Assembly (NCBI GenBank): GCA_015064025.1
Contig: SVSZ01000003.1
Location: 1 to 55,322 of the forward strand
From: Oscillospiraceae bacterium
Lineage (GTDB): Bacteria > Bacillota > Clostridia > Oscillospirales > CAG-272
Length of the DNA: 55,322 bases
Reading direction: 5' to 3'
Shown: in pieces, positions 53 through 20,467 of the stretch
Position numbering within the stretch: the stretch's first letter is position 1
Layout: each line of letters opens with the position of its first letter
Position numbers and translations under genes: made by a program
The notes under the pieces: generated by a model
Database searches by the model: none
What the model was told of the DNA's origin: nothing
The model's input: the letters and a program-made list of their open reading frames with translations, nothing else

Positions 53-397
53 TTATGATAGGATAGCATTCTGAATACATTTTGCGGCATAGGTAGCAAA
101 GCGGACACCGTTGTTCATACTAAAGCTGTCTACCGCCTTGATCAGGCCGATGGTTCCGATGGAGATCAGGTCCTCCGGACTGCGTGCGGTGGAATAATAT
201 TTGCGTACGATATGAGAAACGAGTCGAAGATTGTGCAGGATCAGAAGCTGGCGAGCTTCTTCATCTCCGTTCTTCATTTTCAAAAAGCACGCTTTTTCCT
301 CCTCATCGGCAAGCGGAGGGGGAAAATTCTGCGGCATTCCGACGCCAAGGATCATATGAATGATCTTTGTCAAAAATGCAAAAAGCGTCAAAATCAT
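53..397 (-). CDS. sigK: Sporulation sigma factor sigma-K (pro-form), 5' segment only: hydrophobic pro-peptide plus regions 1.2-2.4. The frame stops right after ...ATYAAKCIQNAILS
   Basis: Translation shows FPPPL..EEE..GDEEAR..LILHNLRLVSHIVRKY, EDLISIGTIGLIKAV and ATYAAKCI, typical of the SigE/SigK group. The short hydrophobic leader before FPxPL and the absence of spoIIGA upstream favour SigK. It is only 114 aa, versus about 230 aa for a full sigma. None of the three frames in bases 1-52 continues into region 3/4. Confidence 0.7.
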   Translation of the reverse strand: MILTLFAFLTKIIHMILGVGMPQNFPPPLADEEEKACFLKMKNGDEEARQLLILHNLRLVSHIVRKYYSTARSPEDLISIGTIGLIKAVDSFSMNNGVRFATYAAKCIQNAILS

Positions 398-2992: not shown

Positions 2993-3802
2993 ATGAAGTT
3001 TTTTACGCACGAAATAAAGGTCGGGGAGTTCTGTGCCCCCTTGCGTGCCTATCTTCCGGATGGCGCACCGCACGGCTTTTTCAAAAGCAATCGTCCCGCA
3101 ATCATTGTTTTTCCGGGCGGAGGATATTCACTTACCTACGGTGGAGAGGCAGAGCCGATCGCGCTTGCTTACGCCGCCGCGGGCTTTTGTGCCTTTGTGC
3201 TTGATTACAGCGTCTATCCCGCAAGATTTCCGCAGGCGCTTCTTGAAGGGCTCCGCTCGATCCGCTTCGTCAGAGAAAAAGCCGAGGAATACGGAATTGA
3301 TCCGAATCGCATCTCTGTCTGCGGCTTCTCCGCAGGCGGTCATCTTGCGGCTTGCACGGGAACGCTCTGGAATCATAAATGCCTCGACGGACTCCTGGAA
3401 GGAGATCGTACGCTGTATCGTCCCAATACACTCGTTCTTTCTTATCCCGTAATCAACCCGTTGCATCGCGGATCTTTTTTGAATTTATTCAGTAAAAACG
3501 AGGATGAACTCACCGAAGAGGTGGTAGAGCTTCTTTCCTTGGAATATCAGGTTTCTTCGGATACGCCGCCAACATTCCTTTGGCACAATTCGGACGACGC
3601 TGCCGTTCCCGTCGAATCGTCACTGGTGTTCGGACTTGCTTTGACACGAAATAAAATCCCGTTTGAAATGCGGATTTGGGAAAGCGGAGGACACGGTTGT
3701 TGCCTCGGCACCTACGTCACCAAAGAGGCGCATCGAATCGAGGCACCGTTAGATTGCCACGCTTGGGTAAGTGAATCCGTAAAATTTTTGCTCCGTCACT
3801 AA
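2993..3802 (+). CDS. Alpha/beta hydrolase, acetyl-esterase/lipase-like
   Basis: FPGGGY oxyanion-type motif, GFSAGGHLA nucleophile elbow (GxSxG), C-terminal GGHG. About 269 aa. Confidence 0.75.
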   Translation: MKFFTHEIKVGEFCAPLRAYLPDGAPHGFFKSNRPAIIVFPGGGYSLTYGGEAEPIALAYAAAGFCAFVLDYSVYPARFPQALLEGLRSIRFVREKAEEYGIDPNRISVCGFSAGGHLAACTGTLWNHKCLDGLLEGDRTLYRPNTLVLSYPVINPLHRGSFLNLFSKNEDELTEEVVELLSLEYQVSSDTPPTFLWHNSDDAAVPVESSLVFGLALTRNKIPFEMRIWESGGHGCCLGTYVTKEAHRIEAPLDCHAWVSESVKFLLRH

Positions 3803-3813
3803 ATAAATATCCC

Positions 3814-3860
3814 AAAAGGACCTTCCCGAAATTCTCCCGGAAGGTCCTTTTGCCGTTTTT
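3814..3860 (+). terminator. Rho-independent terminator after the esterase gene
   Basis: GGACCTTCC / GGAAGGTCC stem followed by TTTTGCCGTTTTT. Confidence 0.75.
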
Positions 3861-3914
3861 GCAAAAAAATCAAAAAAAATATTGACAAAAAAATAACTTT
3901 TTCTCAAAAAGCTA

Positions 3915-3943
3915 TGGACTTTTAAAGAAAAATGTAGTATAAT
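3915..3943 (+). promoter_or_regulatory. Candidate sigma-A promoter of the hydrogenase operon: TGGACT, 17 nt spacer, TATAAT
   Basis: TGGACT at 3915-3920, 17-nt spacer, TATAAT at 3938-3943. It leaves a leader of about 120 nt before the ATG at 4068. Confidence 0.45.
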
Positions 3944-4067
3944 AAGATGTCCAATTATGTGAACGACGTTTTGCTGAAAAAAACAGCTGAATGCAGAAGC
4001 TGTTTCGGTGCTTTACGCACAGCAAGATCTTGTTCCGAAACAAAATATTTCAGGAGGTTTTGGGATT

Positions 4068-4562
4068 ATGAAAAAGAAATTGACTACGGTCGATTTTCAC
4101 GGGACAAAAGAGCAGGAAGAAAAGCTGCTTGCCGTCATTGAAAAGCATGCCGGCGAGAAGGGCGCGATGATGCCCATTCTTCAGGGGGCACAGGAGATCT
4201 ACGGATATCTGCCGATCGAGGTGCAAGAAATCATTGCATTGAAGACGGGCGTATCTCTTGAGGAGATCTTCGGAATCGTTTCTTTCTATGCACAGTTCAA
4301 GCTGAATCCCGACGGTCAGTATGCGATTGCCGTTTGTTTGGGTACCGCTTGCTATGTCAAGGGGGCCGGTGATATCATCAATGCGATCTCCGAGAAGCTC
4401 GGTGTTGCTATCGGAAGCACTTCTCCCGACGGGAAATACTCGATCGAGGCAACCCGTTGCATCGGCGCGTGCGGTCTCGCTCCCGTTTTGACTGTAAACG
4501 GTGAGGTTTACGGAAGACTTACCGTAGACGACGTTGATACCATTCTTGCAAAGTATAAATAA
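4068..4562 (+). CDS. nuoE: NuoE-like [2Fe-2S] subunit (HydC/gamma) of a multimeric NAD(P)-linked [FeFe]-hydrogenase
   Basis: AGGAGG RBS at 4052-4057. Thioredoxin-like 2Fe-2S pattern ...VCLGTACYVKG...CIGACGLAPV..., typical of NuoE/HndA. Confidence 0.85.
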   Translation: MKKKLTTVDFHGTKEQEEKLLAVIEKHAGEKGAMMPILQGAQEIYGYLPIEVQEIIALKTGVSLEEIFGIVSFYAQFKLNPDGQYAIAVCLGTACYVKGAGDIINAISEKLGVAIGSTSPDGKYSIEATRCIGACGLAPVLTVNGEVYGRLTVDDVDTILAKYK

Positions 4563-4596
4563 TTCGACCTACATCTGAAAGGCTGGTACCGATCGT

Positions 4597-4950
4597 ATGA
4601 AAATTTCGGAGATTCAGGAGTTGCTTGATGCAGAGGTTGTCTGCGGAGAGGATCTGCTCGAAAAAGAGGTTTACGCCGCTTGCGGCAGCGATATGATGAG
4701 CGACGTCCTTGCTTACGTAAAAGATCAGGCGGTTCTTTTGACGGGACTGGTCAATACGCAGGTTGTACGAACCGCTGAAATGATGGACATGGTCTGCATC
4801 GTGTTCGTTCGTTCCAAATCTCCCACAGAAGATATGATTGCCATGGCAAGGGAGAGCGGTATGGTACTGCTTAAAACGAGAAAGAGAATGTACGAGGCTT
4901 GCGGAAAGCTTTACGTCGGCGGTCTCCGCGGAAACGGAGTCGCGACATGA
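4597..4950 (+). CDS. DRTGG domain protein (copy 1)
   Basis: 117 aa with the LLTGL..QVVRTAEMMDMVCIVFVR....DMIAMARESGMVLLKT pattern typical of stand-alone DRTGG domains. Its stop overlaps the next start (ATGA). Confidence 0.65.
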   Translation: MKISEIQELLDAEVVCGEDLLEKEVYAACGSDMMSDVLAYVKDQAVLLTGLVNTQVVRTAEMMDMVCIVFVRSKSPTEDMIAMARESGMVLLKTRKRMYEACGKLYVGGLRGNGVAT

Positions 4951-5369
4951 ATGAGGCGGTAAAGTTTCATTTTCTTGTTGACGGTGAGGATTTTACCTCT
5001 GCGGGTCAGGCCTCTGTACAAATGAAAAAGAGTTTGCGACAACTGGGGATCCCACCCGAGATCATTCGCAAGGTTTCCATCGCAATGTATGAGGGCGAGA
5101 TCAATATGGTGATCCACGCAGGCGGTGGAGAGGCAGACGTACTGATCTACGAGGATCGCATTGAGATCAAGCTCGTTGATCACGGTCCCGGTATCGCAAA
5201 TATCGATCTTGCAATGCAAGAGGGCTTTTCCACAGCACCCGACAATATCCGCTCTCTTGGATTTGGCGCGGGTATGGGATTGCCGAATATGAAGCGGTAC
5301 TCCGATTCGATCAAGATCGACTCAGAGTTAGGGCAGGGAACGACCATTCTTTTGACGGTCAATCTCTGA
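4947..5369 (+). CDS. Small GHKL-type ATP-binding protein (HATPase_c only; SpoIIAB-like anti-sigma/Ser kinase fold)
   Basis: EGEINMVIHA (N-box-like), DHGPGI (G1), GFGAGMGLPNM (G2) and GTTILL. There is no DHp/HisKA or sensor domain. The ATG at 4947 overlaps the upstream stop. Confidence 0.7.
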   Translation: MNEAVKFHFLVDGEDFTSAGQASVQMKKSLRQLGIPPEIIRKVSIAMYEGEINMVIHAGGGEADVLIYEDRIEIKLVDHGPGIANIDLAMQEGFSTAPDNIRSLGFGAGMGLPNMKRYSDSIKIDSELGQGTTILLTVNL

Positions 5370-5408
5370 TTGCCGCATCGCAAAAAAGCAAAGGAGCCAT
5401 GTCCTATT

Positions 5409-6695
5409 ATGAATACCTATGAGCATTCGGTATCGTTGGACGTTTCAAGATGCACGGGATGTACGATGTGTCTGAAGCGTTGTCCGACTGAGGCAATACG
5501 GATTCATGACGGTCATGCACAGATCGATCCTAACAGATGTATCGACTGTGGTGTTTGTATTCGTTATTGCCCACATAACGCGAAAAAATCAAACTACAGC
5601 AAGCTGGATACCGTAATGAAGTACAAGTGGAAGATCGCACTTCCCGCGCCTACGCTTTACGGTCAGTTTGAAGAACTGGAGGACGTGGATTACGTGCTCC
5701 AGGGACTTTTGGACATCGGATTTGACGACGTCGTGGAGGTTTCACAGGCTGCAGAGCTCGTTTCTGCATACACAAGACTCTACTTGAAAACCGAAGGTAT
5801 CACGAAGCCCGTGATCAGCTCGGCTTGTCCCGTCGTTCTGCGCTTGATCGCGCTTCGATATCCAATGCTACGCGATAACATTATGCCAATGCTGCCTCCT
5901 ATGGAGATCGCGGCAAAAATGGCACGTGCAAAAGCAAAGGATCTGCATCCAGAGCTTTCAGACGATGATATTTGCGTATGCTTTATCTCCCCCTGTCCCG
6001 CAAAGGTTTCCTACGTGAGAAATGGGTTTGGAGATTACAAAAGTGAAGTCGACGAGGTAGTCTCGATCAGCGACATCTACTTCAATCTTTTGAACGTGAT
6101 GCGCCGCGAGCAAACCCCAAAGGCGATCTCCGGTTCCGGAATGATCGGCATTGGTTGGGCAACTTCGGGCGGAGAATCATCGGCGATCTTCAATGACAAA
6201 TATCTGGCTGCGGACGGTATAGAAAACGTAAACCGCGTGCTGGATCAGCTGGAAAACGGCAATATATCTTCTCTTGAATTCATCGAGCTCAACGCATGCC
6301 CGGGTGGCTGTGTCGGCGGCGTGATGGCGTTGGAGAATCCCTTTGTGGCAAAGGCAAGGCTACAGACTCTGCGGCGATATCTGCCTGTTTCTCAAAACGT
6401 GCTTTCCGATGAAGAAAGGAAATATATTCCCGACTACTACTTCTTCGAGAATATGCCGACGTATAGTCCGATCCAACGGTTGAGTGAAAACTTCGCGGAG
6501 TCACTTCGAATGATGGCAGATATTCAAAGGATCCGTTCGGAGCTTCCCGCCATCGACTGCGGTGCTTGCGGCGCTCCCAACTGCCGTGCTTTTGCAGAGG
6601 ACATTGTAAAAGGAAAAGCCAAACGCGAGGATTGCATCATCGAGAGAGGACGGCAGGCCGAAGAAAAAATGAAAAAAAGCAGGGGGGAAGACTGA
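5409..6695 (+). CDS. [FeFe]-hydrogenase-like Fe-S protein: two 4Fe-4S ferredoxin motifs, an H-domain with non-canonical motifs, and a C-terminal CX2CX5C..C cluster domain. Putative sensory paralog
   Basis: CTGCTMCLKRCP and CIDCGVCIRYCP. H-domain-like SSACPVV, FISPCPAKV and ELNACPGGCVGG. C-terminal CGACGAPNCRAF...REDC. The start could instead be the TTG at 5370. Confidence 0.75.
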   Translation: MNTYEHSVSLDVSRCTGCTMCLKRCPTEAIRIHDGHAQIDPNRCIDCGVCIRYCPHNAKKSNYSKLDTVMKYKWKIALPAPTLYGQFEELEDVDYVLQGLLDIGFDDVVEVSQAAELVSAYTRLYLKTEGITKPVISSACPVVLRLIALRYPMLRDNIMPMLPPMEIAAKMARAKAKDLHPELSDDDICVCFISPCPAKVSYVRNGFGDYKSEVDEVVSISDIYFNLLNVMRREQTPKAISGSGMIGIGWATSGGESSAIFNDKYLAADGIENVNRVLDQLENGNISSLEFIELNACPGGCVGGVMALENPFVAKARLQTLRRYLPVSQNVLSDEERKYIPDYYFFENMPTYSPIQRLSENFAESLRMMADIQRIRSELPAIDCGACGAPNCRAFAEDIVKGKAKREDCIIERGRQAEEKMKKSRGED

Positions 6696-7024
6696 TGACC
6701 GTTTGTGAAATGGCAGAACGCCTTGCCCTGACACCACTGGCGATCGGGGATGAAAACCGCGAATTTTCAGGCGTTTACATCGGAGATCTGCTCAGCTGGG
6801 TGATGGGACGCGCATCAAGCGACAACGTTTGGATCACCATCATGTCCAACGTGAACGTCGTTGCCGTAGCAACCCTTGCTGACGTTGCCTGCATCATTCT
6901 CGCAGAAGGCGTCACGTTGGATGAAAACGTGCGCGCAACAGCAGAGAAAAAAGGAGTCAACGTTTTTACCTCGGAGAAAACCGCGTACGAGCTCGCGGCA
7001 CTCCTTGCACAGATCGAGCAGTGA
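6695..7024 (+). CDS. DRTGG domain protein (copy 2)
   Basis: 109 aa with ...VWITIMSNVNVVAVATLADVACIILAEGVTLDENVRATAEKKGVNVFTS, same architecture as copy 1. The start overlaps the upstream stop (TGATG). Confidence 0.65.
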   Translation: MTVCEMAERLALTPLAIGDENREFSGVYIGDLLSWVMGRASSDNVWITIMSNVNVVAVATLADVACIILAEGVTLDENVRATAEKKGVNVFTSEKTAYELAALLAQIEQ

Positions 7025-7761
7025 GTAAGTATTATTACGATCTGCATCTTCATTCCTGCCTATCTCCTTGCGCCGACAACGATATGACTCCGAACAACAT
7101 CGCCGGAATGGCGGCATTGGCAGGATTGAACATCGTTGCGCTGACGGATCATAATTCCTGCAAAAACTGTCCCGCATTCTTTGCGGCGGCAAAGAAGCAA
7201 GGATTGATTCCAATCGCGGGAATGGAGCTGACCACGGCAGAGGATATCCACGTGATCTGCTTATTCGAGAAGTTAGAGGATGCTCTTGCGTTCAGTGATG
7301 CGGTAGATACCCATCGGATCAGATTTCCGAACCGTGTGGATATCTTTGGCGAACAGCTGATACTCAATGAAAACGACGAGCCGATCGGAACGGAGGCGGA
7401 TCTCCTTTCAAATGCGACCGACCTGATGCTGGAGGATGTTCCACCCTTGGTTTCGCAGTATCACGGAATCTGCTATCCCGCACACGTGGACAGGGAAGCG
7501 AACGGTATCCTTGCCACACTCGGTACGTTCCCCGAGTTTCCGTCTTTTACTCGCGTAGAATTTCACGACGCAGAAAAGATCGAGGTCTACAAAAGCCTTC
7601 ATCCCGTGATCGATGAAATGATGACACTCGTTTCATCAGACGCGCACTATCTGTGGGACATCAGAGATGCCGCTCACTGGGTGGAGCTCGATGATGAGCC
7701 GTATTCCTCAGAGCTTGTCAGACACAACCTGTTTTTGCTTTTGAAAGGAGACGCGAAATGA
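7021..7761 (+). CDS. PHP-domain (polymerase/histidinol-phosphatase family) metal-dependent phosphoesterase
   Basis: N-terminal YYDLHLHSCLSPCAD, then ALTDHN, and a C-terminal SDAH motif. The GTG start overlaps the upstream stop. Confidence 0.75.
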   Translation: MSKYYYDLHLHSCLSPCADNDMTPNNIAGMAALAGLNIVALTDHNSCKNCPAFFAAAKKQGLIPIAGMELTTAEDIHVICLFEKLEDALAFSDAVDTHRIRFPNRVDIFGEQLILNENDEPIGTEADLLSNATDLMLEDVPPLVSQYHGICYPAHVDREANGILATLGTFPEFPSFTRVEFHDAEKIEVYKSLHPVIDEMMTLVSSDAHYLWDIRDAAHWVELDDEPYSSELVRHNLFLLLKGDAK

Positions 7762-8309
7762 AGGAGCTTTCCTTGAACGTTCTTGACATTGCAGAAAACT
7801 CTGTCAAGGCGGGAGCAACACTTGTATGTATTCATCTCATTGATGACGGGAACGTGCTTATGATGACGGTTACAGACGACGGTTGTGGAATGAAAGAGGA
7901 AATTCTGCGCGGTGTGATCGATCCGTTTTATACTACGCGAACGACCAGAAGTGTCGGTCTTGGCATTCCGCTTTTGAAGCTGGCGGCTGAGCAGACGGGA
8001 GGGGAGGTCACAATCACCTCTCGACACGTTTCCGAGTATCCGGAATCTCACGGCACGGAAATTTCGGCACGCTTTTACACAAAACACATCGACTGCGCTC
8101 CTATGGGTGATATCATCTCCACGATAACGACCCTGATCCAGGGGCATGCAGAAATCGATTTTGAGTTTTTGCACCGCTCAAAGGATTTTGACGTACATCT
8201 CGATACCAGGGAAATGCGACAAGTCCTCGGTGCGGAGATTCCGTTGAACGATCCCGAAATTCTTACCTGGATCGCTCAATATCTAAAAAATCTGTATGAA
8301 AAAAATTAA
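7758..8309 (+). CDS. Second GHKL-type ATP-binding protein (HATPase_c core plus a C-terminal domain of unknown function)
   Basis: NVLDIAENSVKAGA (N-box), DDGCGM (G1) and GLGIPLL (G2). No DHp domain. ATGA overlap with the PHP gene. Confidence 0.7.
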   Translation: MKELSLNVLDIAENSVKAGATLVCIHLIDDGNVLMMTVTDDGCGMKEEILRGVIDPFYTTRTTRSVGLGIPLLKLAAEQTGGEVTITSRHVSEYPESHGTEISARFYTKHIDCAPMGDIISTITTLIQGHAEIDFEFLHRSKDFDVHLDTREMRQVLGAEIPLNDPEILTWIAQYLKNLYEKN

Positions 8310-8333
8310 AACATAAAAGAAAGGAACTCAGCT

Positions 8334-8711
8334 ATGAAATCTTTGGCAGAGCTTGCAGCAATCAGAGAGAAAATGAAGGACAAGATCGTTCTTCGCGAGG
8401 GAGGCGAGTCCAGCGTACGTATCGTCGTCGGTATGGCGACCTGTGGTATCGCGGCAGGAGCGCGTCCCGTTCTCAGTGCATTTGTTGAAGGCGTGGAAAA
8501 GGAGGGCCTTGCAGGAAAGGCGATTGTATCCCAGACGGGGTGCATCGGTATTTGCCAGTACGAGCCCGTTGTGGAGGTTATGGAGCCGGGTAAAGAAAAG
8601 ATTACCTATGTGAAAATGACCCCCGAAAAGGTTGAAAAAGTACTGAAAGAGCACATCAAGGGTGGCAAGGTCGTTCAGGAATACACGATCGCCGCTGCCA
8701 AGAATGTATAA
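8334..8711 (+). CDS. Thioredoxin-like (2Fe-2S) ferredoxin (HydD-like)
   Basis: 125 aa with the GMATCGIAAGA ... CIGICQYEPVV pattern. Confidence 0.75.
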   Translation: MKSLAELAAIREKMKDKIVLREGGESSVRIVVGMATCGIAAGARPVLSAFVEGVEKEGLAGKAIVSQTGCIGICQYEPVVEVMEPGKEKITYVKMTPEKVEKVLKEHIKGGKVVQEYTIAAAKNV

Positions 8712-8729
8712 ATTGGAGGTATCGATTTT

Positions 8730-10556
8730 ATGATTCGCGCTCACGTATTATGTTGTGGCGGTACGGGATGTACTTCTTCCGGAAGCCCTAAAATCCAAGC
8801 TGCTTTCGAGACTGAAATTGCAAAGAACGGTCTTGCCGATGAAATCAAGGTCGTTCAAACCGGTTGCTTCGGTCTTTGTGCACTCGGTCCCGTTGTTATC
8901 GTATATCCCGACGGAACCTTCTACAGCAACGTCACCGAAGAGGACGTTGCGGAGATCGTCAGCGAGCACCTTCTCAAGGGACGTGTTGTTGAAAGACTCG
9001 TCTATAATGACACCGGCGATGCAGAAGCAAACGTAGAGGAAGCACACGCATCCTTGAATGACACCATCTTCTATAAATCCCAGTACCGCCTGGCACTCCG
9101 TAACTGCGGCGTCATCAATCCTGAGGCTATTGACGAATACATTGCGATGGACGGCTACGCAGCACTCGGAAAGGTTCTGACCGAGATGACTCCCGACGAG
9201 GTCATTCAAACCATTCTGGATTCCGGTCTCCGCGGACGCGGAGGCGCAGGCTTCCCGACCGGCTTGAAGTGGAAGTTCGCTTCGGGTAGACGCGGCGAGG
9301 TCCAGAAGTACGTTTGTTGTAACGCAGACGAGGGAGACCCCGGCGCATTTATGGACCGTTCTATTCTTGAGGGTGACCCTCACGCACTGATCGAGGCTAT
9401 GGCAATTGCAGGCTATGCAATCGGCGCAACGCAGGGTTACGTATACGTTCGTGCAGAGTACCCGATCGCAGTCAATCGCCTCCAGATCGCAATCGATCAG
9501 GCAAAGGAATACGGTTTGCTCGGCAAGAATATCTTTGGTACGGACTTTGAATTCGACCTTGAGATCCGTCTTGGCGCAGGTGCATTCGTCTGTGGTGAAG
9601 AGACCGCACTGATGACCTCCATCGAAGGTAAGCGCGGTGAGCCCCGTCCCCGTCCTCCTTTCCCCGCAGTCAAGGGTCTGTTCGATCGTCCCACCGTTTT
9701 GAACAACGTCGAAACCTACGCAAACATTCCCCAGATCATTCTCAAGGGTGTGGATTGGTTCAGAACCATCGGCACCGAGAAGTCCAAGGGTACGAAGGTG
9801 TTTGCACTCGGCGGAAAGATCAAGAACACAGGTCTTGTTGAGGTTCCTATGGGAACGACGCTTCGTCACATCATTGAGGAGATCGGTGGCGGTATCCCCA
9901 ACGGCAAGAAGTTTAAGGCTGCACAGACCGGTGGACCTTCCGGCGGATGTATCCCCGCGCACTTGATCGACACCCCTATTGACTACGATAACCTTCTTGA
10001 AATCGGATCTATGATGGGCTCCGGTGGTTTGATCGTTATGGACGAGGATAACTGTATGGTTGATATCGCACGCTTCTTCCTCGACTTTACGGTGGATGAG
10101 TCCTGCGGTAAGTGCACACCCTGCCGTGTTGGTACGAAGAGACTCCTTGAGATCCTTGATAAGATCATCGCAGGTAACGGTGAGCTTGAGGATCTTGACA
10201 GACTTGAGGAGCTTTCCAACTACATCAAGTCCGCATCTCTTTGCGGTCTCGGTCAAACTGCCCCCAACCCCGTCCTTTCCACACTGCGCTACTTCCGTGA
10301 GGAGTATATCGCGCACATCGTTGACAAAAAGTGTCCCGCAGGTGTTTGTAAGGGTCTGTTGCGTTTCGTTATCGATGCTGACAAGTGTATCGGTTGCGGA
10401 ATGTGTGCAAAGCAGTGTCCTGCATCCGCAATCGAGAGAACCGATTACATCGCGCCCAAGCACAAGCTTGCCTCCTTTGCAATCGATCCCGCGAAGTGCG
10501 TGAAGTGCGGTGCTTGCTTGCCCACCTGTAAGTTCAAAGCTATCTCAAAACAGTAA
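8730..10556 (+). CDS. nuoF: NuoF-like NAD(P)H/FMN-binding subunit (HydB/beta) with an N-terminal 2Fe-2S domain and C-terminal 2x[4Fe-4S]
   Basis: GLRGRGGAGFPTGLKW (FMN/NADH site), ESCGKCTPCR, and C-terminal CIGCGMCAKQCP / CVKCGACLPTC. GGAGG RBS at 8715-8719. Confidence 0.9.
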   Translation: MIRAHVLCCGGTGCTSSGSPKIQAAFETEIAKNGLADEIKVVQTGCFGLCALGPVVIVYPDGTFYSNVTEEDVAEIVSEHLLKGRVVERLVYNDTGDAEANVEEAHASLNDTIFYKSQYRLALRNCGVINPEAIDEYIAMDGYAALGKVLTEMTPDEVIQTILDSGLRGRGGAGFPTGLKWKFASGRRGEVQKYVCCNADEGDPGAFMDRSILEGDPHALIEAMAIAGYAIGATQGYVYVRAEYPIAVNRLQIAIDQAKEYGLLGKNIFGTDFEFDLEIRLGAGAFVCGEETALMTSIEGKRGEPRPRPPFPAVKGLFDRPTVLNNVETYANIPQIILKGVDWFRTIGTEKSKGTKVFALGGKIKNTGLVEVPMGTTLRHIIEEIGGGIPNGKKFKAAQTGGPSGGCIPAHLIDTPIDYDNLLEIGSMMGSGGLIVMDEDNCMVDIARFFLDFTVDESCGKCTPCRVGTKRLLEILDKIIAGNGELEDLDRLEELSNYIKSASLCGLGQTAPNPVLSTLRYFREEYIAHIVDKKCPAGVCKGLLRFVIDADKCIGCGMCAKQCPASAIERTDYIAPKHKLASFAIDPAKCVKCGACLPTCKFKAISKQ

Positions 10557-10575
10557 GAAAGGGGAATTGTGGACA

Positions 10576-12330
10576 ATGGATATGATAAAAGTAAAAATTA
10601 ATGGCAAAGAATATTCTGTTGCCAAGGGTTCCACGGTTCTGGAAGCCGCAAAAGCAGCGCATATTGATATTCCTACGCTCTGCTATCTGAAAGACATCAA
10701 TGAGATTGGTGCTTGTCGTCTGTGTCTGGTCGAAATTGCCGAAATGCGCGGAGACGCACTCGGTCCTTGGCGCATGGTTACCGCTTGCGTATATCCTTGC
10801 ACCGAAGGGATGGAGATCAAGACCAACACTCCTAAGATTACCGCATCCAGAAAGATGAACCTGGAGCTTTTGCTCTCCAATCACGATAAGAAGTGTCTCT
10901 CCTGCGTACGCTCCACCAACTGTGAGTTGCAGACGCTCTGCCGTGAGTACGGTGTTGAATTCTCCCGCTTCGACGGTGATACCAACGAGTACGAGATCGA
11001 CGACAGAACTCCTATCATCCGCGATAATAACAAGTGTATTCTGTGTCGCCGTTGCGTCGCAACCTGTGCAAAGGTTCAGGAGATTGGTGTTATCGGCGCT
11101 AACAACCGCGGATTTGACACCTATATCGGTTCTGCATTCGAGCAGCCCTTGGCGGCTACCTCCTGCATCAACTGTGGTCAGTGTATCGTAGCTTGCCCTG
11201 TTGGCGCACTCTACGAGAGAGATGACACCGACGGTGTTTTTGAGGCTCTTGCAGATCCCAACAAGCATACCGTAATTTGCACCGCTCCCTCCGTCCGCGC
11301 ACAGCTTGGCGAGTGCTTCGGCTACGAGCCCGGTACCGACGTTGAGGGCAAGATGGTTGCTGCTCTCAAGGCGCTTGGCTTTGACGGTGTATATGATATG
11401 AATCTCACCGCTGACCTTACCATCGTCGAGGAGGCAACCGAGCTGATCGGAAGAATTCAGAACAACGGCACGCTGCCTATGATCACCTCCTGCTCACCCG
11501 GATGGATCAAGTACTGCGAGCACTATTTCCCTGAATTCACGGAGAACCTTTCCACCTGCAAGTCTCCTCAGCAGATGTTTGGTGCGATCGTTAAGACCTA
11601 CTACGCACAGAAGATGGGTTGGGATCCCAAGGACATCGTAATGGTATCCGCAATTCCTTGTACCGCAAAGAAGTTCGAGGTTTCTCGCCCCGATCAGAAC
11701 GCAGCAGGCGTTCCCGATGTTGATTATGCGATCACGACCCGTGAGGTCGGCCGTATGATCCAGAAGGCAGGCATCAACTTCCGCGCTCTTGAGGACGAGA
11801 AGTTTGACGATCCCTTTGCAATCGGCTCCGGCGCAGGCGCAATCTTCGGAGCAACCGGTGGCGTTATGGAGGCGGCACTCCGCTATGCGGCAGAGATCAT
11901 TCTCGGCAAGAAGCTCGAGAAGGTTGATTTTGCTGAGGTGCGTGGCACCGAGGGAATCAAGACCGCATCCTACAAGCTCGGAGACGTTACGGTGAATGTT
12001 GCAGTTGCTTCCAGCACGGGTATGGCCAAGAAGCTTCTGAATATGGTTAAGAACGGTGAGCTTGACGTTCAGTTCATCGAGATCATGGGATGCCCCGGTG
12101 GATGTGTCAACGGCGGTGGTCAGCCCATTCAGCCCGCAAACGTTCGTATGAATATGGATCTGCGCGCGATTCGTGCAGCAGTTCTTTACAACGACGACGC
12201 AAACGACGAGCTTCGCAAATCTCAAGACAACCTTGCTGTAAAGGTGCTTTACGATGAATTCCTCGGCGCACCCAACAGTCATAAGGCGCACGAGATTCTG
12301 CACACCAGCTACATCAAGCGCGGTCTGTAA
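10576..12330 (+). CDS. hydA: [FeFe]-hydrogenase catalytic subunit (HydA, multidomain M3-type)
   Basis: N-terminal 2Fe-2S ferredoxin fold (CRLC...C), a His-ligated cluster region, and two 4Fe-4S motifs (CILCRRCVATC, CINCGQCIVACP). H-cluster motifs are TSCSPGW, IPCTAKKFE and EIMGCPGGCVNGGGQP. Confidence 0.9.
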   Translation: MDMIKVKINGKEYSVAKGSTVLEAAKAAHIDIPTLCYLKDINEIGACRLCLVEIAEMRGDALGPWRMVTACVYPCTEGMEIKTNTPKITASRKMNLELLLSNHDKKCLSCVRSTNCELQTLCREYGVEFSRFDGDTNEYEIDDRTPIIRDNNKCILCRRCVATCAKVQEIGVIGANNRGFDTYIGSAFEQPLAATSCINCGQCIVACPVGALYERDDTDGVFEALADPNKHTVICTAPSVRAQLGECFGYEPGTDVEGKMVAALKALGFDGVYDMNLTADLTIVEEATELIGRIQNNGTLPMITSCSPGWIKYCEHYFPEFTENLSTCKSPQQMFGAIVKTYYAQKMGWDPKDIVMVSAIPCTAKKFEVSRPDQNAAGVPDVDYAITTREVGRMIQKAGINFRALEDEKFDDPFAIGSGAGAIFGATGGVMEAALRYAAEIILGKKLEKVDFAEVRGTEGIKTASYKLGDVTVNVAVASSTGMAKKLLNMVKNGELDVQFIEIMGCPGGCVNGGGQPIQPANVRMNMDLRAIRAAVLYNDDANDELRKSQDNLAVKVLYDEFLGAPNSHKAHEILHTSYIKRGL

Positions 12331-12346
12331 TATTTCTTTTAACACA

Positions 12347-12380
12347 AACGGGAAAGGTCAAACGACCTTTCCCGTTTTCC
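12347..12380 (+). terminator. Rho-independent terminator of the hydrogenase operon
   Basis: AACGGGAAAGGTC / GACCTTTCCCGTT stem followed by a T-run. Confidence 0.8.
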
Positions 12381-12438
12381 GTGCTTTGCGGGAGGGGCTC
12401 CAAAATGCAAGGATTTCTTTGATTTTTTCTCACATCGG

Positions 12439-12467
12439 TTGACTTTTATCAAAAAAAGTTGTATAAT
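12439..12467 (+). promoter_or_regulatory. Sigma-A promoter of the COG0523 gene pair: TTGACT, 17 nt spacer, TATAAT, extended -10 TG
   Basis: TTGACT at 12439-12444, 17-nt spacer ending in TG, TATAAT at 12462-12467. Confidence 0.6.
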
Positions 12468-12503
12468 AATAGTTGTTATTTTTATCAAAGAAGGGTGTTT
12501 TTT

Positions 12504-13709
12504 ATGACGAAAATTGATATTTTTTCAGGCTTTCTCGGTGCGGGAAAGACGACGCTGATCAAAAAACTGTTGCGCGAAGCGTACGTTGGAGAAAAACTGG
12601 TGCTCATCGAAAATGAATTTGGAGAGATCGGTATCGACGGCGGTTTTATGCAGGATGCAGGAATCGAAGTGACCGAAATGAATAGTGGTTGCATCTGCTG
12701 TTCCTTGGTTGGAGATTTCGGGAAGGCACTTCAAAAGGTACTTGATGAATACCATCCCGATCGTATTCTTATCGAGCCCTCGGGGGTCGGGAAGCTTTCC
12801 GATATCATCCGCGCCGTACAAGATCTCGATGCGAAGGATATTCTTCTCAATGGCTTTACTACGGTTGCAGATGTAAAAAAATGCAAAATGTATATGAAAA
12901 ACTTTGGAGAATTCTTCAACGATCAGATATCCAACGCCGGATGCATCGTTCTTTCTCACACGCAATCCGTAACAGATGAAAAAATGGAAGAGACAGTATC
13001 CCTTCTGCGCGAAAAAAATCCCACCGCCGTGATCGTTACCACTCCTTGGGACTCCCTGGACGGTACGGCACTCCTTGCTGCGATGGAACGCAGAGATACG
13101 ATAGAAGAGGAGCTCGCGCGGTTGGCAGAAACGGTGCACCATCACCATCATCACAGCGACGAATGCGAGGATCCCGATTGCTCTTGTCACCATCATCACC
13201 ACGATCACGATGAGGAGGAGCACGAGCACCATCACCATCATCACAGCGACGAATGCGAGGATCCCGATTGCTCTTGCCACCATCATCACCACAATCACGA
13301 TGAGGAGGAGCACGGGCACCATCACCATCATCACAGTGACGAATGCGAGGATCCCAATTGCTCTTGCCACCATCATCACCACAATCACGGTGGGGAAGGG
13401 CATGAGCATCATCACCATCATCACGCCGACGAGGTGTTTGTCAGCTACGGAGCGGAAACCGCTCGAAAATTCGGCAAAGAAGAGCTGGAGGAAATTCTCA
13501 AAGCTCTTGCTGATGAGAAATACGGTGCGGTACTTCGCGCGAAGGGAATTGTTCCTTGCAAATGCGGCGCATGGTTGCACTTTGATTACGTTCCCGAAGA
13601 AGGAGACGTTCGGAAAGGATCTGCGGCAATTACAGGAAGGCTTTGCGTGATTGGATCGAAGCTTAACAGAGCTGCGCTGAGTGAATTGTTCGGCGTTGAT
13701 TTGAAATAA
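12504..13709 (+). CDS. COG0523 (CobW/YjiA/ZigA-type) G3E GTPase metallochaperone with a very large His/Cys-rich insert
   Basis: Walker A GFLGAGKTT, ENEFGE, metal motif CICC, IEPSGVG. The C-terminal CobW_C-like domain follows a stretch of about 96 aa holding roughly 45 His and 9 Cys. Confidence 0.85.
   Translation: MTKIDIFSGFLGAGKTTLIKKLLREAYVGEKLVLIENEFGEIGIDGGFMQDAGIEVTEMNSGCICCSLVGDFGKALQKVLDEYHPDRILIEPSGVGKLSDIIRAVQDLDAKDILLNGFTTVADVKKCKMYMKNFGEFFNDQISNAGCIVLSHTQSVTDEKMEETVSLLREKNPTAVIVTTPWDSLDGTALLAAMERRDTIEEELARLAETVHHHHHHSDECEDPDCSCHHHHHDHDEEEHEHHHHHHSDECEDPDCSCHHHHHNHDEEEHGHHHHHHSDECEDPNCSCHHHHHNHGGEGHEHHHHHHADEVFVSYGAETARKFGKEELEEILKALADEKYGAVLRAKGIVPCKCGAWLHFDYVPEEGDVRKGSAAITGRLCVIGSKLNRAALSELFGVDLK
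13137..13424 (+). repeat. In-frame tandem repeat, period 90 bp, about 3.2 copies. It encodes HHHHHHSDECEDP(D/N)CSCHHHHH(D/N)H(D/G)(E/G)E(E/G)HE units
   Basis: Units at 13137-13226, 13227-13316 and 13317-13406, plus a partial unit at 13407-13424. Units 1 and 2 differ at only 3 of 90 positions. Confidence 0.95.
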
Positions 13710-13719
13710 GGAGTGCGCT

Positions 13720-14667
13720 ATGGCAGCTATGATACCCGTATACCTCTTTACAGGGTTTCTTGAGGGTGGAAAAACACACATCATTCAGGAATCTATGGAG
13801 GATCCCAAATTTAATAACGGCGAAAAAACACTTCTTATTCAGTGCGAAGAGGGAGTGGACGAGCTTGATTTTTCAAGATTTTACACGCAAAGCGTTCAGC
13901 TTGAAACCTTAGAGGACGAGGCAGCGTTGACGGAAGAAATTTTAAGCACGTTGTCAAAAAAACACAAGCCTGCGCGTGTGATCATCGAATACAACGGAAT
14001 GTGGTCGCTCAACACGCTCTACCAAAATCTTCCAAGCAGTTGGCAAGTTTATCAGGAAATGATGTTTGCGGATGCCAACACGTTTCTTTCCTACAACGCC
14101 AATATGCGTCAGTTAATGGTAGACAAGCTCCTCAATGCGGAAATGGTCATACTCAACCGCACCCCGGCGGAGATTGATAAAGAAGAAATCCACAAGGTGA
14201 TCCGCGGAATTTCACGCCGTGTCGCTATCGCTTACGATTATCCCGACGGACACGTGGAGTACGACGAGATCGAGGATCCGCTTCCGTTTGATCTGAGTGC
14301 ACCGATCGTTAATATTGAGGATGCGGATTACGCGCTTTTTTACAGAGATTTGTCCGAGGAAATGGATAAATACAATGGAAAAACCGTACGATTCAAGGGC
14401 TTGATCGCAAGAGATCCCTCCATCGGAGACAAAAGCGCGCTTGCAGGACGCCATGTGATGACCTGCTGCGCCGATGATATTGCATACAATCCGCTTGTTT
14501 GTATTTTCTCGGAAAAGTCCCCCTTAAAGACGCGGGATTGGGCGATTCTGACAGGAACGATCCGATTGGAAAAGCATAAGCTTTACAACGGCATAGGTCC
14601 CGTTTTCTACGTTACAAAGACAGAATTTGCTGTTCCTCCCGCACAAGAGGTTGCAACCTTTTATTGA
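13720..14667 (+). CDS. Degenerate COG0523-like N-domain fused to a DUF1980 (TIGR03943)-like C-terminal domain carrying a CCADD motif
   Basis: Degenerate P-loop GFLEGGKTH, no CxCC, IEYNGMW in place of ETTG/EPSG, NRTP in place of NKxD. The C-terminal GKTVRFKGLIARD....AGRHVMTCCADDIAY...W..LTGTI resembles the DUF1980 C-domain. AAGGAG RBS. Confidence 0.6.
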   Translation: MAAMIPVYLFTGFLEGGKTHIIQESMEDPKFNNGEKTLLIQCEEGVDELDFSRFYTQSVQLETLEDEAALTEEILSTLSKKHKPARVIIEYNGMWSLNTLYQNLPSSWQVYQEMMFADANTFLSYNANMRQLMVDKLLNAEMVILNRTPAEIDKEEIHKVIRGISRRVAIAYDYPDGHVEYDEIEDPLPFDLSAPIVNIEDADYALFYRDLSEEMDKYNGKTVRFKGLIARDPSIGDKSALAGRHVMTCCADDIAYNPLVCIFSEKSPLKTRDWAILTGTIRLEKHKLYNGIGPVFYVTKTEFAVPPAQEVATFY

Positions 14668-14804: not shown

Positions 14805-14855
14805 ATATATAATTATCCTTTGATTTGGAAATACACGAACGTGGAGGAGACGGCT

Positions 14856-15866
14856 ATGACCATGATATGGGAAAAGATTTGCGCGTGGTTTATGCAATAC
14901 GTAGCGGATCCGATGATGCATATGGATTGGCGAGATGCAGTTGATATCCTTGTTTTGACGGTCTTACTGTATCAGGTCTATCGTTTTGTACGCAACCGAC
15001 GCGCAGGACGCGTAATGGTCGGATTGGTGTTCGTTGTTTTCATTTCCATCGTGTTGCGCTTTTTCAAGCTGGAGGCATTCACCTATATTTCCTCGTTGAT
15101 TGCAGCATCCGCCTTTTTCTGCGTTATCGTTATCTTTCAGCCGGAAATCCGCGATGCGCTTGAAAACATTGGAAATCTGACAATTCTCAAGCCCGGGAGT
15201 GATACTCTTCCCAAAAAGCAGTATTGGCTCGCAAAATCTGTTGCGGATGAGGTCGTCGATGCAACCTTCAAAATGGCAGATTCCCAAACCGGTGCCTTGA
15301 TTATTTTCGAAGGCATCACCAAGCTTGGAGATTATATGCATAGCGGAAAGCTCGTGGACGCCCGTGTAACCTCACACCTGCTTCAGAATATTTTTTACGA
15401 CAAAGCGCCTTTGCACGACGGTGCGGTGATCATTCGAAAAATGCGGATATACGCAGCAAGCTGTGTGCTTCCTTCCACAACGGGTGCTTTGGATTTCGGA
15501 AGCATGGGTACACGTCATCGCGCGGCGGTCGGAGTCACCGAGGTCAGCGATTCCTTGGCATTGATCGTTTCCGAGGAAACAGGGTTCGTTTCCGTGGCGC
15601 AGGACGGTCGCTTGCTCAGAGCAGTAGATCGCGAGACGCTTCGCGATATTCTGATGACTTACCTTGCGGGTAGAGCATATCTGCGCGTCAAGCGCGGCGT
15701 ACACGTGGATCCTTTTGACGGTGTCCCGAAGCTAAAGCGCTACTACGGTGAGGATGACTATTCTTCTCTTGACGGTGATGAGATATCAACCAAGGACGTT
15801 GTCGAGAGAGAGTTTCCCTCGCAAATGAATATGTTTGATTCCGACAATGGAGAAAACGCGGAGTAA
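14856..15866 (+). CDS. cdaA: Diadenylate cyclase CdaA (membrane-anchored DAC domain) with an acidic C-terminal extension
   Basis: Three N-terminal TM helices, then GALIIFEG, LHDGAVII, GTRHRAA and ALIVSEETG DAC-domain motifs. GGAGGAG RBS 6 nt upstream of the ATG at 14856. Confidence 0.9.
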   Translation: MTMIWEKICAWFMQYVADPMMHMDWRDAVDILVLTVLLYQVYRFVRNRRAGRVMVGLVFVVFISIVLRFFKLEAFTYISSLIAASAFFCVIVIFQPEIRDALENIGNLTILKPGSDTLPKKQYWLAKSVADEVVDATFKMADSQTGALIIFEGITKLGDYMHSGKLVDARVTSHLLQNIFYDKAPLHDGAVIIRKMRIYAASCVLPSTTGALDFGSMGTRHRAAVGVTEVSDSLALIVSEETGFVSVAQDGRLLRAVDRETLRDILMTYLAGRAYLRVKRGVHVDPFDGVPKLKRYYGEDDYSSLDGDEISTKDVVEREFPSQMNMFDSDNGENAE

Positions 15867-20436: not shown

Positions 20437-20467
20437 AAAAAGGAGAAAATCCACGGAGGTGCCTTTG

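Follow-up and report, generated by a model that had tools for sequence, protein, structure and literature searches.

What do six small genes do inside an operon for an [FeFe]-hydrogenase of the electron-bifurcating type? The question is raised by a 55,322-nucleotide stretch of an Oscillospiraceae bacterium contig (SVSZ01000003.1, assembly GCA_015064025.1), the whole of which stretch we call the window. A ten-gene run of the window (4068-12330) encloses the locus studied here (4597-8309, + strand), where an initial annotation, made from the sequence alone, had placed six open reading frames (ORFs) between nuoE/hydC and the fdx-nuoF-hydA genes. All six are present on the + strand, and Pfam searches agree with the domain assigned to each, marginally so for the DRTGG domains. 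In order, they encode a DRTGG-domain protein (DRT1), a SpoIIAB-like GHKL ATPase (GHKL1), a sensor-type [FeFe]-hydrogenase (HydS), a second DRTGG-domain protein (DRT2), a PHP-family phosphoesterase (PHP), and a second GHKL ATPase (GHKL2); their coordinates are given in Table 1.

The locus belongs to a known operon family, that of Group D sensory hydrogenases encoded with a bifurcating HydABC enzyme, because both the sensor and its setting are already in the literature. A Group D (M2e) sensor upstream of trimeric bifurcating HydABC has been described repeatedly (Calusinska 2010; Carere 2012, PMC3561251; Verbeke 2013, PMC3608648; Land 2020, PMC8163306). In Caldicellulosiruptor, Caldanaerobacter, Thermoanaerobacter, C. 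thermocellum, and C. phytofermentans, according to Carere 2012 (PMC3561251), a gene classed as 'D M2e' lies upstream of the trimeric hydrogenase at a distance of four to five genes, with a histidine/serine kinase in between, and the same arrangement was found in all Thermoanaerobacter (Verbeke 2013, PMC3608648). The position of such a sensor beside a kinase-like gene, upstream of trimeric hydrogenases, has been in print since 2010-2013; the initial annotation had mentioned kinase-like genes next to the trimeric hydrogenases of thermophilic Clostridia. Newly described here are the conservation of the gene order, a four-gene core, the association of GHKL2 with nuoE and fdx, and a map of gene fusions. 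The reading that we favor, with a probability of roughly one in two, is that these genes encode an ATP-dependent H2/redox-sensing complex that tunes NuoEF-type bifurcating enzymes.

Gene order and gene fusions around HydS

Our census of close relatives covered the 80 closest species genomes, all Oscillospirales-type metagenome-assembled genomes with 56-84% identical HydS proteins, along with one 93%-identical locus (L001). Thirty-six of the 38 loci whose contig spans the whole operon share the order nuoE-DRT1-GHKL1-HydS-DRT2-PHP-GHKL2-fdx-nuoF-hydA, with the nuoE-like gene first; the two variants (L065 and L081) carry nuoE between PHP and GHKL2. The contigs that end inside the operon all fit the ten-gene order except L074, and fdx is kept directly after GHKL2 in 71 related loci. 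The four stop/start overlaps noted in the initial annotation can all be read directly in the letters of the window, and they recur in the close relatives at DRT1/GHKL1 (65 of 74), HydS/DRT2 (57 of 78), DRT2/PHP (59 of 76), and PHP/GHKL2 (48 of 74), which divides them into two blocks, DRT1/GHKL1 and HydS/DRT2/PHP/GHKL2. Given the shared order in 36 of 38 complete loci and the conserved overlaps, the ten-gene arrangement is not a product of chance. The expectation that the accessory genes are conserved together with hydrogenase genes is likewise borne out by the neighborhoods of relatives.

The junction between GHKL1 and HydS has a 39-nucleotide gap and no overlap, with AAAGGAG 8 nucleotides upstream of the ATG at 5409. 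A mechanical ORF list offers earlier TTG starts for GHKL1 (4899), HydS (5370), and DRT2 (6566); gene calls on near-identical public contigs give proteins of 140, 428, and 109 amino acids, respectively, in agreement with the initial annotation. The L074 contig begins at HydS (57-1802), which is followed by a 133-residue ORF and then opposite-strand genes, with no recognizable DRT2, PHP, or GHKL2 after it.

A second census took in 80 metagenome loci in which HydS is 36-46% identical to a distant representative, except for one 78% partial match (L089), and these loci were annotated with profiles made from the close census. GHKL1 lies directly upstream of HydS in 69 of 72 of them, DRT1 lies upstream in 58 of 63, DRT2 follows downstream in 61 of 67, and PHP is found downstream in 47 of 59 (80%). 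DRT1-GHKL1-HydS-DRT2 is therefore a core conserved at 91-96% in diverse loci, and its genes nearly always adjoin one another and are coupled in translation. GHKL2 is never alone in the distant loci: it adjoins PHP and nuoE in 14 of them, nuoE and fdx in 11, only PHP in 5, and PHP and fdx in 2. GHKL1 thus tracks DRT1 and HydS, and GHKL2 tracks PHP, nuoE, and fdx. The natural units are the four-gene core, usually joined by PHP, and a GHKL2 gene that belongs with the NuoE/ferredoxin end.

These units are arranged in several ways. A five-gene sensor unit (DRT1-GHKL1-HydS-DRT2-PHP) may be followed by GHKL2-nuoE-fdx-nuoF-hydA or by nuoE-GHKL2-fdx-nuoF-hydA, the nuoE gene may come first as in the window, the five-gene unit may be transcribed divergently from nuoE-GHKL2-fdx-nuoF-hydA (L152, L154, and L166), or DRT1-GHKL1-HydS-DRT2 may stand alone among housekeeping genes. 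The initial annotation had described the six genes as spliced into a hydrogenase operon; that description holds for the lineage of the window, but elsewhere nuoE follows PHP, the sensor unit is divergent, or the core stands by itself. The stand-alone core of L137 and the three divergent layouts argue that the sensor genes act in trans and are not obligate structural subunits permanently bound to the enzyme. In three further loci, L083 (7359-9552), L086 (3343-5886), and L167, the gene that comes after the linked NuoE and NuoF genes encodes a molybdopterin (formate-dehydrogenase-like) subunit and not HydA. Because the module also accompanies such enzymes, its common partner may be the NuoEF flavin/NAD module.

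The four-gene core of L137 (8186-10640) is situated between DUF5058/SpoVT-like genes and ileS/infC. Stand-alone cores are also present in L139, L140, L143 (a human-gut metagenome contig), and L146, and none of these five has PHP, GHKL2, or hydABC within 8-9 kb. In L086, NfnAB-like genes are also linked to the sensor module in place of HydA.

Gene fusions, which we counted where two full-length profile matches joined by a linker fall in one ORF, follow the same division. L085 and five separate clusters at 50% identity (P0140, P0151, P0227, P0220, and P0228) have DRT2 fused to the C terminus of HydS, DRT1 is fused to HydS in L084/P0154 and P0190, and GHKL1 is fused to HydS in L082/P0155. DRT1::GHKL1 fusions occur in L100, L104, and L109, PHP::GHKL2 fusions occur in L102, L105, and L149, and L160 joins GHKL2 to the [2Fe-2S] ferredoxin Fdx. 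In L083 (481-1347), whose HydS is 31% identical to that of the window, a 288-residue protein carries an N-terminal CBS domain ahead of GHKL1. The carriers of the DRT1::GHKL1 and PHP::GHKL2 fusions have HydS proteins that are only 57-76% identical to one another, so these fusions are inherited and are not assembly errors. The fusion map forms a chain of DRT1, GHKL1, HydS, and DRT2 on one side and of PHP, GHKL2, and ferredoxin on the other.

Two small additional DRT-like ORFs lie between HydS and PHP in L083. Suspected GHKL2::NuoE fusions in L095 and L109 were rejected by hhalign and Pfam, and N-terminal extensions of GHKL1 in L094, L095, and L124 were not counted as fusions since they contain no recognizable domain.

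Sequence and model features of the six proteins

HydS combines two N-terminal [4Fe-4S] motifs, an H-domain, and a C-terminal four-Cys cluster. Its H-cluster cysteines (C140, C196, C297, and C301) are invariant among 59 diverse homologs, down to about 30% identity, as are C15, C21, C25, C44, C47, C50, C54, C384, C387, C392, and C409; C18 is invariant in a closer 14-sequence set only. In the window and in its 80 relatives, the L1 motif reads SSACP in place of the TSCCP of catalytic enzymes, so the proton-relay Cys is lost, and the L2 motif reads SPC (S194-P195-C196), with Ser instead of Met353. Pfam detects no PAS domain in the protein. HydS thereby fits the description that defines the Group D (M2e) putative sensory [FeFe]-hydrogenases, with an H-cluster site that is complete and a catalytic proton relay that has been lost. 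Land 2020 (PMC8163306) defined the M2e class by these features, among them an xSxCP motif and the replacement of Met353, renamed the T. mathranii enzyme TamHydS, and found low turnover, CO tolerance, and behavior like that of a regulatory hydrogenase. At the Met497 position, HydS has Asn295 with Leu294 adjoining, and TamHydS is reported to have Leu there; the Asp-Cys pairs D383-C384 and D408-C409 are spaced like D378-C379 and D403-C404 of TamHydS. The redox/H2-sensor candidate of the initial annotation is indeed a sensor-type protein, but not an unrecognized one, since it falls in Group D/M2e and its kind has been studied as TamHydS.

GHKL1 has its best PDB sequence matches in the anti-sigma F factor (1TIL, 1L0O, and 1TH8). 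Its top NCBIfam match, spIIAB, reaches 55.2 bits against a cut-off of 135, and RsbW reaches 24.7 against 145. At least 93% of 74 diverse homologs keep the N-box (E49, E51, and N53), G1 box (D78, G80, and G82), and G2 box (G105-N114), and this conservation makes ATP binding likely. No STAS antagonist, sigma factor, or PP2C phosphatase of the kind that accompanies SpoIIAB or RsbW adjoins the gene, whose neighbors encode DRTGG proteins, HydS, and PHP.

The two DRTGG proteins are distant paralogs that align over their full length (hhalign probability of 99.1%, 24% identity). Among solved structures, AF_1212 (2IOJ) and the DRTGG domain of a CBS-pyrophosphatase (3L2B) come nearest to them, at marginal E values of about 0.01-0.02. 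At least 93% of 63 diverse DRT1 homologs keep D32, M34, S35, L38, L47, T49, G50, L51, K74, and P76, and at least 93% of 69 DRT2 homologs keep D31, L33, S34, W46, T48, N54, V58, A59, and A83. An invariant Asp, Ser, and Thr are common to both paralogs (D32/S35/T49 in DRT1, D31/S34/T48 in DRT2). Phosphorylation of these proteins may occur. The canonical TGGDR has become TGLVN in DRT1 and TIMSN in DRT2, with the Thr retained and GDR gone. Because that Thr occupies the family-wide TGGDR position and is present in AF_1212 too, it may be structural or ligand binding rather than a phospho-acceptor.

PHP keeps the metal-ligand motifs of its family (H9, H11, D43/H44, E69, H77, H155, and D207/H209) in at least 93% of 55 diverse homologs. 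An AlphaFold2 model of PHP, built like that of GHKL2 from a shallow alignment of database matches, has a mean predicted local distance difference test score (pLDDT) of 93.4, and its best fold matches are EndoQ (TMq 0.68), the PHP domain of PolC/Pol III, the TrpH-like BAD_1165 and Cv1693, and RNase AM. No protein phosphatase, including those of the CpsB/YwqE type, is among its Pfam or NCBIfam matches or its top 50 fold matches, and the absence of such matches to the model weakens the case for a protein-phosphatase role. The first motif of the protein (residues 13-17) reads DLHLHSCLSPCAD, in which S15-P16-C17 is invariant among the 55 homologs, in place of the S-D-G of TrpH-type enzymes. In the model, confidence is low (pLDDT below 50) in this loop only, at residues 16-18. 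C17 could be a redox-sensitive or metal-binding Cys.

GHKL2 is a protein of a different kind. Its ENS..AGA, DDGCGM, DPFYTTR, and VGLGIP motifs correspond to the N, G1, F, and G2 boxes of a kinase CA domain, its top sequence matches are the CA domains of KinB, AtoS, and ZraS along with PMS2/MutL, and at least 93% of 34 diverse homologs keep D10, N14, D40/G42/G44, P56-F57, G67/G69, and G99-T100. ATP use by both GHKL proteins is therefore plausible from their motifs. GHKL2 has no DHp/HisKA domain, as the protein opens directly with the N-box helix, and neither the operon nor its flanks encode a receiver. Its AlphaFold2 model (pLDDT 86) is matched best in Foldseek by the N-terminal domain of PMS2/MutL (E 1e-7, TMq 0.52-0.58, about 180 columns), and kinase CA domains align to it over about 105 columns only; the F and G2 boxes are nevertheless kinase-like, and the transducer and C-terminal domains of MutL are not present. 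GHKL2 could accordingly be an orphan kinase module or, as its model suggests, an ATP-driven clamp. The initial annotation had seen in the six genes a symmetric switch of two kinase-like ATPases, two DRTGG proteins, one phosphoesterase, and one sensor candidate. The parts do not group in that way, as the two GHKL proteins belong to different clades with different partners. A reading as kinase plus protein phosphatase is weakened by the models, of which that of PHP resembles nucleotide and nucleic-acid phosphoesterases and that of GHKL2 the MutL N-terminal domain.

An output at the level of transcription is not apparent at this locus. HisKA, receiver, STAS, and HTH domains were not found in the operon by Pfam or NCBIfam, in line with the absence of a two-component or partner-switching output that the initial annotation had noted, and no DNA-binding output is encoded in or beside it. 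The sole sigma-factor gene is a sigma-70-family fragment on the opposite strand at the edge of the window (53-397), three unrelated genes away.

Weighing a proposed sensing complex against its rivals

In the sensing complex that we favor, H2 binding or oxidation at HydS would shift its Fe-S relay, the C-terminal cluster included, to another redox state. This change would alter how ATP-bound GHKL1 engages DRT1 and DRT2, either as a nucleotide-dependent binding switch or through Ser/Thr phosphorylation, with the D-x-x-S and T positions of both DRTGG paralogs as candidate acceptor or ligand-binding residues. PHP and GHKL2 would relay or reset the resulting state at the NuoE/HydD/NuoF electron-input side. 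The net effect would be a bifurcating hydrogenase tuned post-translationally to H2 pressure and energy/redox charge; in other lineages, the tuned enzyme would be the NuoEF-linked formate-dehydrogenase-like enzyme.

Several points weigh against this sensing complex. Phosphotransfer by the GHKL proteins is a putative step, GHKL1 scores far short of the SpoIIAB and RsbW equivalog cut-offs, and the DRTGG fold differs from STAS, the known substrate of SpoIIAB-type kinases. The lack of a DHp domain and the MutL/PMS2-like model of GHKL2 would suit an ATP-driven clamp or chaperone as well as a kinase, and the structures closest to the PHP model all act on nucleotides or nucleic acids. Fusions of adjacent genes show a functional link, not the direction in which information flows. 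A NuoF-type gene lies within 7.5 kb of HydS in 13 of 21 distant loci and not in the rest; since about half of the diverse loci with sufficient flanking DNA have no nearby NuoF, the regulated target need not be the adjacent hydrogenase. Finally, the T. mathranii sensor is reported beside an AraC-type regulator (Land 2020, PMC8163306), so a transcriptional output exists in some lineages.

A strict partner-switching scheme, which we regard as unlikely, would have GHKL1, and perhaps GHKL2, phosphorylate Ser/Thr residues of DRT1 and DRT2 and PHP act as the phosphatase, with the phosphorylation state of the DRTGG proteins deciding whether HydS or HydABC is retained or set free by the kinase. The succession of a small alpha/beta protein, a SpoIIAB-like kinase, a target, and a phosphoesterase mirrors rsbV-rsbW-sigB-rsbX and spoIIAA-AB-AC, and the order and overlap of DRT1 and GHKL1 resemble the antagonist-kinase pairs spoIIAA-AB and rsbV-rsbW. 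GHKL1 is nearest SpoIIAB and has intact catalytic boxes, it is found fused to DRT1, and both DRTGG paralogs carry the invariant Asp, Ser, and Thr. Some PHP-family enzymes, such as CpsB and YwqE, are protein Tyr phosphatases. The fold matches of PHP, however, are nucleases and nucleotide phosphoesterases rather than enzymes of that type, the DRTGG fold is not STAS, and the conserved Thr at the family-wide TGGDR position is perhaps structural or ligand binding. GHKL2 fits the scheme poorly as well, having no DHp domain and a MutL-like model, and the stand-alone four-gene cores have no adjoining PHP.

Also doubtful, in our estimate, is a scheme of nucleotide or energy-charge sensing combined with cofactor housekeeping, in which adenine nucleotides or NAD(H) bind to the DRTGG proteins (and, in some lineages, to CBS domains) and HydS provides redox information or electrons. 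PHP would here hydrolyze a nucleotide-type ligand (pAp-like, a dinucleotide, or derived from flavin or NAD), a role that accords with its nearest relatives, TrpH, the pAp phosphatase Cv1693, RNase AM, EndoQ, and the PolC PHP domain. GHKL2 would be a MutL/Hsp90-like ATP-driven clamp that assembles or remodels the NuoE-HydD-NuoF module; its model does match the MutL/PMS2 N-terminal domain best, and its gene lies with nuoE on one side and fdx on the other, and L160 carries it fused to fdx. The scheme gains further from the CBS::GHKL1 fusion, from the DRTGG domains that adjoin CBS domains in the nucleotide-regulated CBS-pyrophosphatases, the nearest solved relatives of DRT1 and DRT2, and from the occurrence of the module with NuoEF plus molybdopterin (formate-dehydrogenase-like) enzymes, where the common partner is NuoEF and not HydA. 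Yet the DPFYTTR...VGLG motifs of GHKL2 are of the histidine-kinase CA type and not of the MutL type, and the TM-scores to MutL are merely moderate. No ligand is predicted, the four-gene core occurs far from any NuoEF genes, and heterologous HydABC is not known to need more than HydEFG for activity.

Transcriptional control through an unlinked factor, with GHKL1 as the anti-sigma or anti-activator kinase of a sigma, AraC-type, or Rex-like regulator and HydS only gating GHKL1, is quite improbable. In its favor, the anti-sigma factor is the best family match of GHKL1, an AraC-type regulator is reported beside TamHydS, deletions of Group C HydS/HfsB change adhE-related activities according to the literature, and stand-alone cores imply action in trans. 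Against it, none of the 80 closely related loci has a linked regulator, the fusion partners of GHKL1 are HydS and DRT1 and not any DNA-binding protein, and GHKL2 and PHP are physically tied to genes for enzyme subunits.

A bolder form of the sensing complex can be sketched, tentatively and as something that we would not expect to hold. DRT1-GHKL1-HydS-DRT2 would be an undescribed type of partner switching, in which a SpoIIAB-like kinase has a direct connection to an H-cluster sensor and the antagonists, under nucleotide or phosphorylation control, are DRTGG proteins instead of STAS proteins. A PHP::GHKL2 effector would dock on HydC/HydD/HydB, and bifurcation would be switched on and off post-translationally by H2 pressure.

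Flanking genes, related systems, and significance

The structural genes of the operon encode NuoE-like, NuoF-like, and group A HydA subunits together, as expected from their family matches for an electron-bifurcating HydABC enzyme. The matches of the nuoE-like protein to the NuoE and HoxE families of NCBIfam are under the equivalog cut-offs. A search with a 117-residue segment identified A. woodii HydA1 (7Q4V) as the best solved relative of HydA. The TSCSPGW motif of HydA (residues about 302-313), where the textbook form is TSCCPxW, was considered as a lost cluster ligand; this was ruled out because the active, solved A. woodii enzyme has the same motif, which is therefore normal for the bifurcating HydA class and is conserved in 43 of 43 related HydA sequences.

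Table 1. Features of the hydrogenase operon and its flanks, in window coordinates (GA, Pfam gathering threshold; aa, amino acids)
Feature	Position	Strand	Remarks
Promoter-like site TGGACT-17-TATAAT	3915-3943	+	10/12 consensus match only; ahead of operon
hydC / nuoE-like, thioredoxin-like [2Fe-2S] subunit	4068-4562	+	PF01257 (2Fe-2S_thioredx) 160 bits; first operon gene in the window's lineage
DRT1, stand-alone DRTGG-domain protein, 117 aa	4597-4950	+	PF07085 26.7 bits vs GA 25.2
ATGA overlap	4947-4950	+	DRT1 stop / GHKL1 start
GHKL1, 140-aa SpoIIAB/RsbW-like GHKL ATPase	4947-5369	+	HATPase_c, HATPase_c_2; putative Ser/Thr kinase or ATP-dependent binding switch
HydS, 428 aa, Group D (M2e) putative sensory [FeFe]-hydrogenase	5409-6695	+	Fe_hyd_lg_C 96.9 bits, Fer4 x2, C-terminal PF04060 'FeS'
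TGATG overlap	6693-6697	+	HydS / DRT2; ATG begins at 6695, as in the initial annotation
DRT2, second DRTGG-domain protein, 109 aa	6695-7024	+	PF07085 30.4 bits vs GA 25.2
GTGA overlap	7021-7024	+	DRT2 / PHP
PHP-family metal-dependent phosphoesterase, 246 aa	7021-7761	+	PF02811
ATGA overlap	7758-7761	+	PHP / GHKL2
GHKL2, 183-aa orphan GHKL ATPase	7758-8309	+	HATPase_c 49.8 bits, HATPase_c_3; NtrB-type CA motifs, extra C-terminal alpha/beta subdomain
fdx, small thioredoxin-like [2Fe-2S] ferredoxin (HydD-like), 125 aa	8334-8711	+	PF01257 23.8 bits (just under GA); fdxn_Clost 48.6 bits
hydB / nuoF-like, FMN- and NAD(H)-binding subunit, 608 aa	8730-10556	+	Complex1_51K, NADH_4Fe-4S, SLBB, N-terminal 2Fe-2S, C-terminal 2x Fer4; TIGR01959 508.8 bits
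hydA, catalytic [FeFe]-hydrogenase subunit, bifurcating type, 584 aa	10576-12330	+	NF040763 FeFe_hydrog_A6 842.6 bits vs cut-off 765; Fe_hyd_lg_C 313 bits plus Fe_hyd_SSU
CobW/HypB/UreG-type GTPase gene 1	12504-13709		Directly after hydA; thrice-repeated His/Cys-rich insert HHHHHHSDECEDPDCSCHHHHH
CobW/HypB/UreG-type GTPase gene 2	13720-14667		After gene 1; fused to DUF1980_C

Upstream of the operon, the promoter-like site lies downstream of a hairpin and T-run (about 3812-3860) that terminates an esterase gene. No Rex operator (TTGTTAAN4TTAACAA, with up to 3 mismatches) is found near the operon, and an Rfam search of the window returned no RNA element. A gut metatranscriptome (X18) mapped to window positions 3800-12500 gives a depth of 0-8 over the six accessory genes and of 40-650 over hydB/hydA, with most reads 90-95% identical. 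Reads at such identity come from related species, which makes this data set unusable for operon structure; the contrast in depth may be due to cross-mapping onto the structural genes, which are conserved, and not to differential expression.

The two CobW-type GTPase genes that follow hydA were considered as hydrogenase metallochaperones and rejected, since only 1 of 31 related loci has them after hydA. Other neighbors in the window are the housekeeping genes cdaA (c-di-AMP synthase), recJ, and relA/spoT (14853-15866, 18244-20436, and 20459-22684). Together with the sigma fragment, these are conserved beside the operon in the closest relative only.

The TamHydS-type Group D loci are among the closest known counterparts. 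They share with the window the two [4Fe-4S] motifs, the H-domain, the C-terminal four-Cys cluster, the absence of PAS, the loss of the proton-relay Cys, and the Ser in place of Met353, and the sensor is likewise encoded with a kinase-like ATPase beside a bifurcating group A hydrogenase. This likeness to TamHydS is drawn from published features. In the window, however, the sensor unit comes after nuoE and is thus enclosed by the structural operon, and no AraC-type regulator adjoins the sensor genes. The papers that we found do not discuss the conserved partners of the sensor here, namely the two DRTGG genes and PHP.

Group C (M2f) HydS/Hfs systems (Ruminococcus albus HydS, T. saccharolyticum HfsABCD, and T. 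maritima HydS) are comparable. Their [FeFe]-hydrogenase, which also has a C-terminal cluster, shows low activity and is proposed to sense H2, and its gene is found near those of bifurcating hydrogenases together with genes for a phosphatase and a Ser/Thr kinase that resembles RsbW/SpoIIAB. Unlike the window, which has DRTGG flanks, a PHP phosphoesterase, and a second, orphan GHKL protein and lacks PAS, Group C has a fused PAS domain and PP2C phosphatase. The SpoIIAA-SpoIIAB-sigmaF and RsbV-RsbW-sigmaB-RsbX systems also combine a small alpha/beta gene, an overlapping gene for a 140-residue GHKL protein, a presumed target, and a phosphoesterase, and their ATP-binding boxes are conserved in GHKL1; the window has DRTGG instead of STAS, an Fe-S hydrogenase instead of a sigma factor, and PHP instead of PP2C. 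HoxBC with HoxJ and HoxA of Cupriavidus necator follows the same logic of a weak hydrogenase and a GHKL-type kinase that report H2, but the sensor is not homologous, and HoxJ (PAS and DHp) and HoxA (a DNA-binding response regulator) have no counterpart in the window. The CBS-DRTGG inserts of family II pyrophosphatases (3L2B and 3L31) and AF_1212 contain the same alpha/beta domain of about 110 residues as DRT1 and DRT2, and one distant locus fuses CBS to GHKL1. The window itself, by contrast, has no CBS domain, its TGGDR motif is altered, and the similarity is marginal.

The signal-transduction mechanism of sensory [FeFe]-hydrogenases is called unknown in a 2024 review and in the 2020 (PMC8163306) and 2026 TamHydS papers, and the native complex of the sensor is likewise called unknown in the TamHydS papers and the review. 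Full-text literature searches returned no published mechanism for the DRTGG/GHKL/PHP set, as the initial annotation had supposed, and found no paper that names DRTGG with these hydrogenases or a PHP gene in this context. The comparative data now supply a testable list of partners: HydS with GHKL1, DRT1, and DRT2; PHP with GHKL2; and GHKL2 with the 2Fe-2S ferredoxin.

The HydS family is very large: its proteins form more than 8000 clusters at 90% identity and, at E<1e-30, 414 clusters at 50% identity, and they occur in at least 600 species-representative genomes. Any mechanism would for that reason be of wide application. The H2 balance of communities in the gut, the rumen, and fermenters is set by bifurcating [FeFe]-hydrogenases, which thereby affect methane output and fermentation products; the organism of the window is itself of bovine or fecal gut origin. 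As an operon, the locus is ordinary; its interest lies in the signaling question posed by the Group C and Group D sensory hydrogenases.

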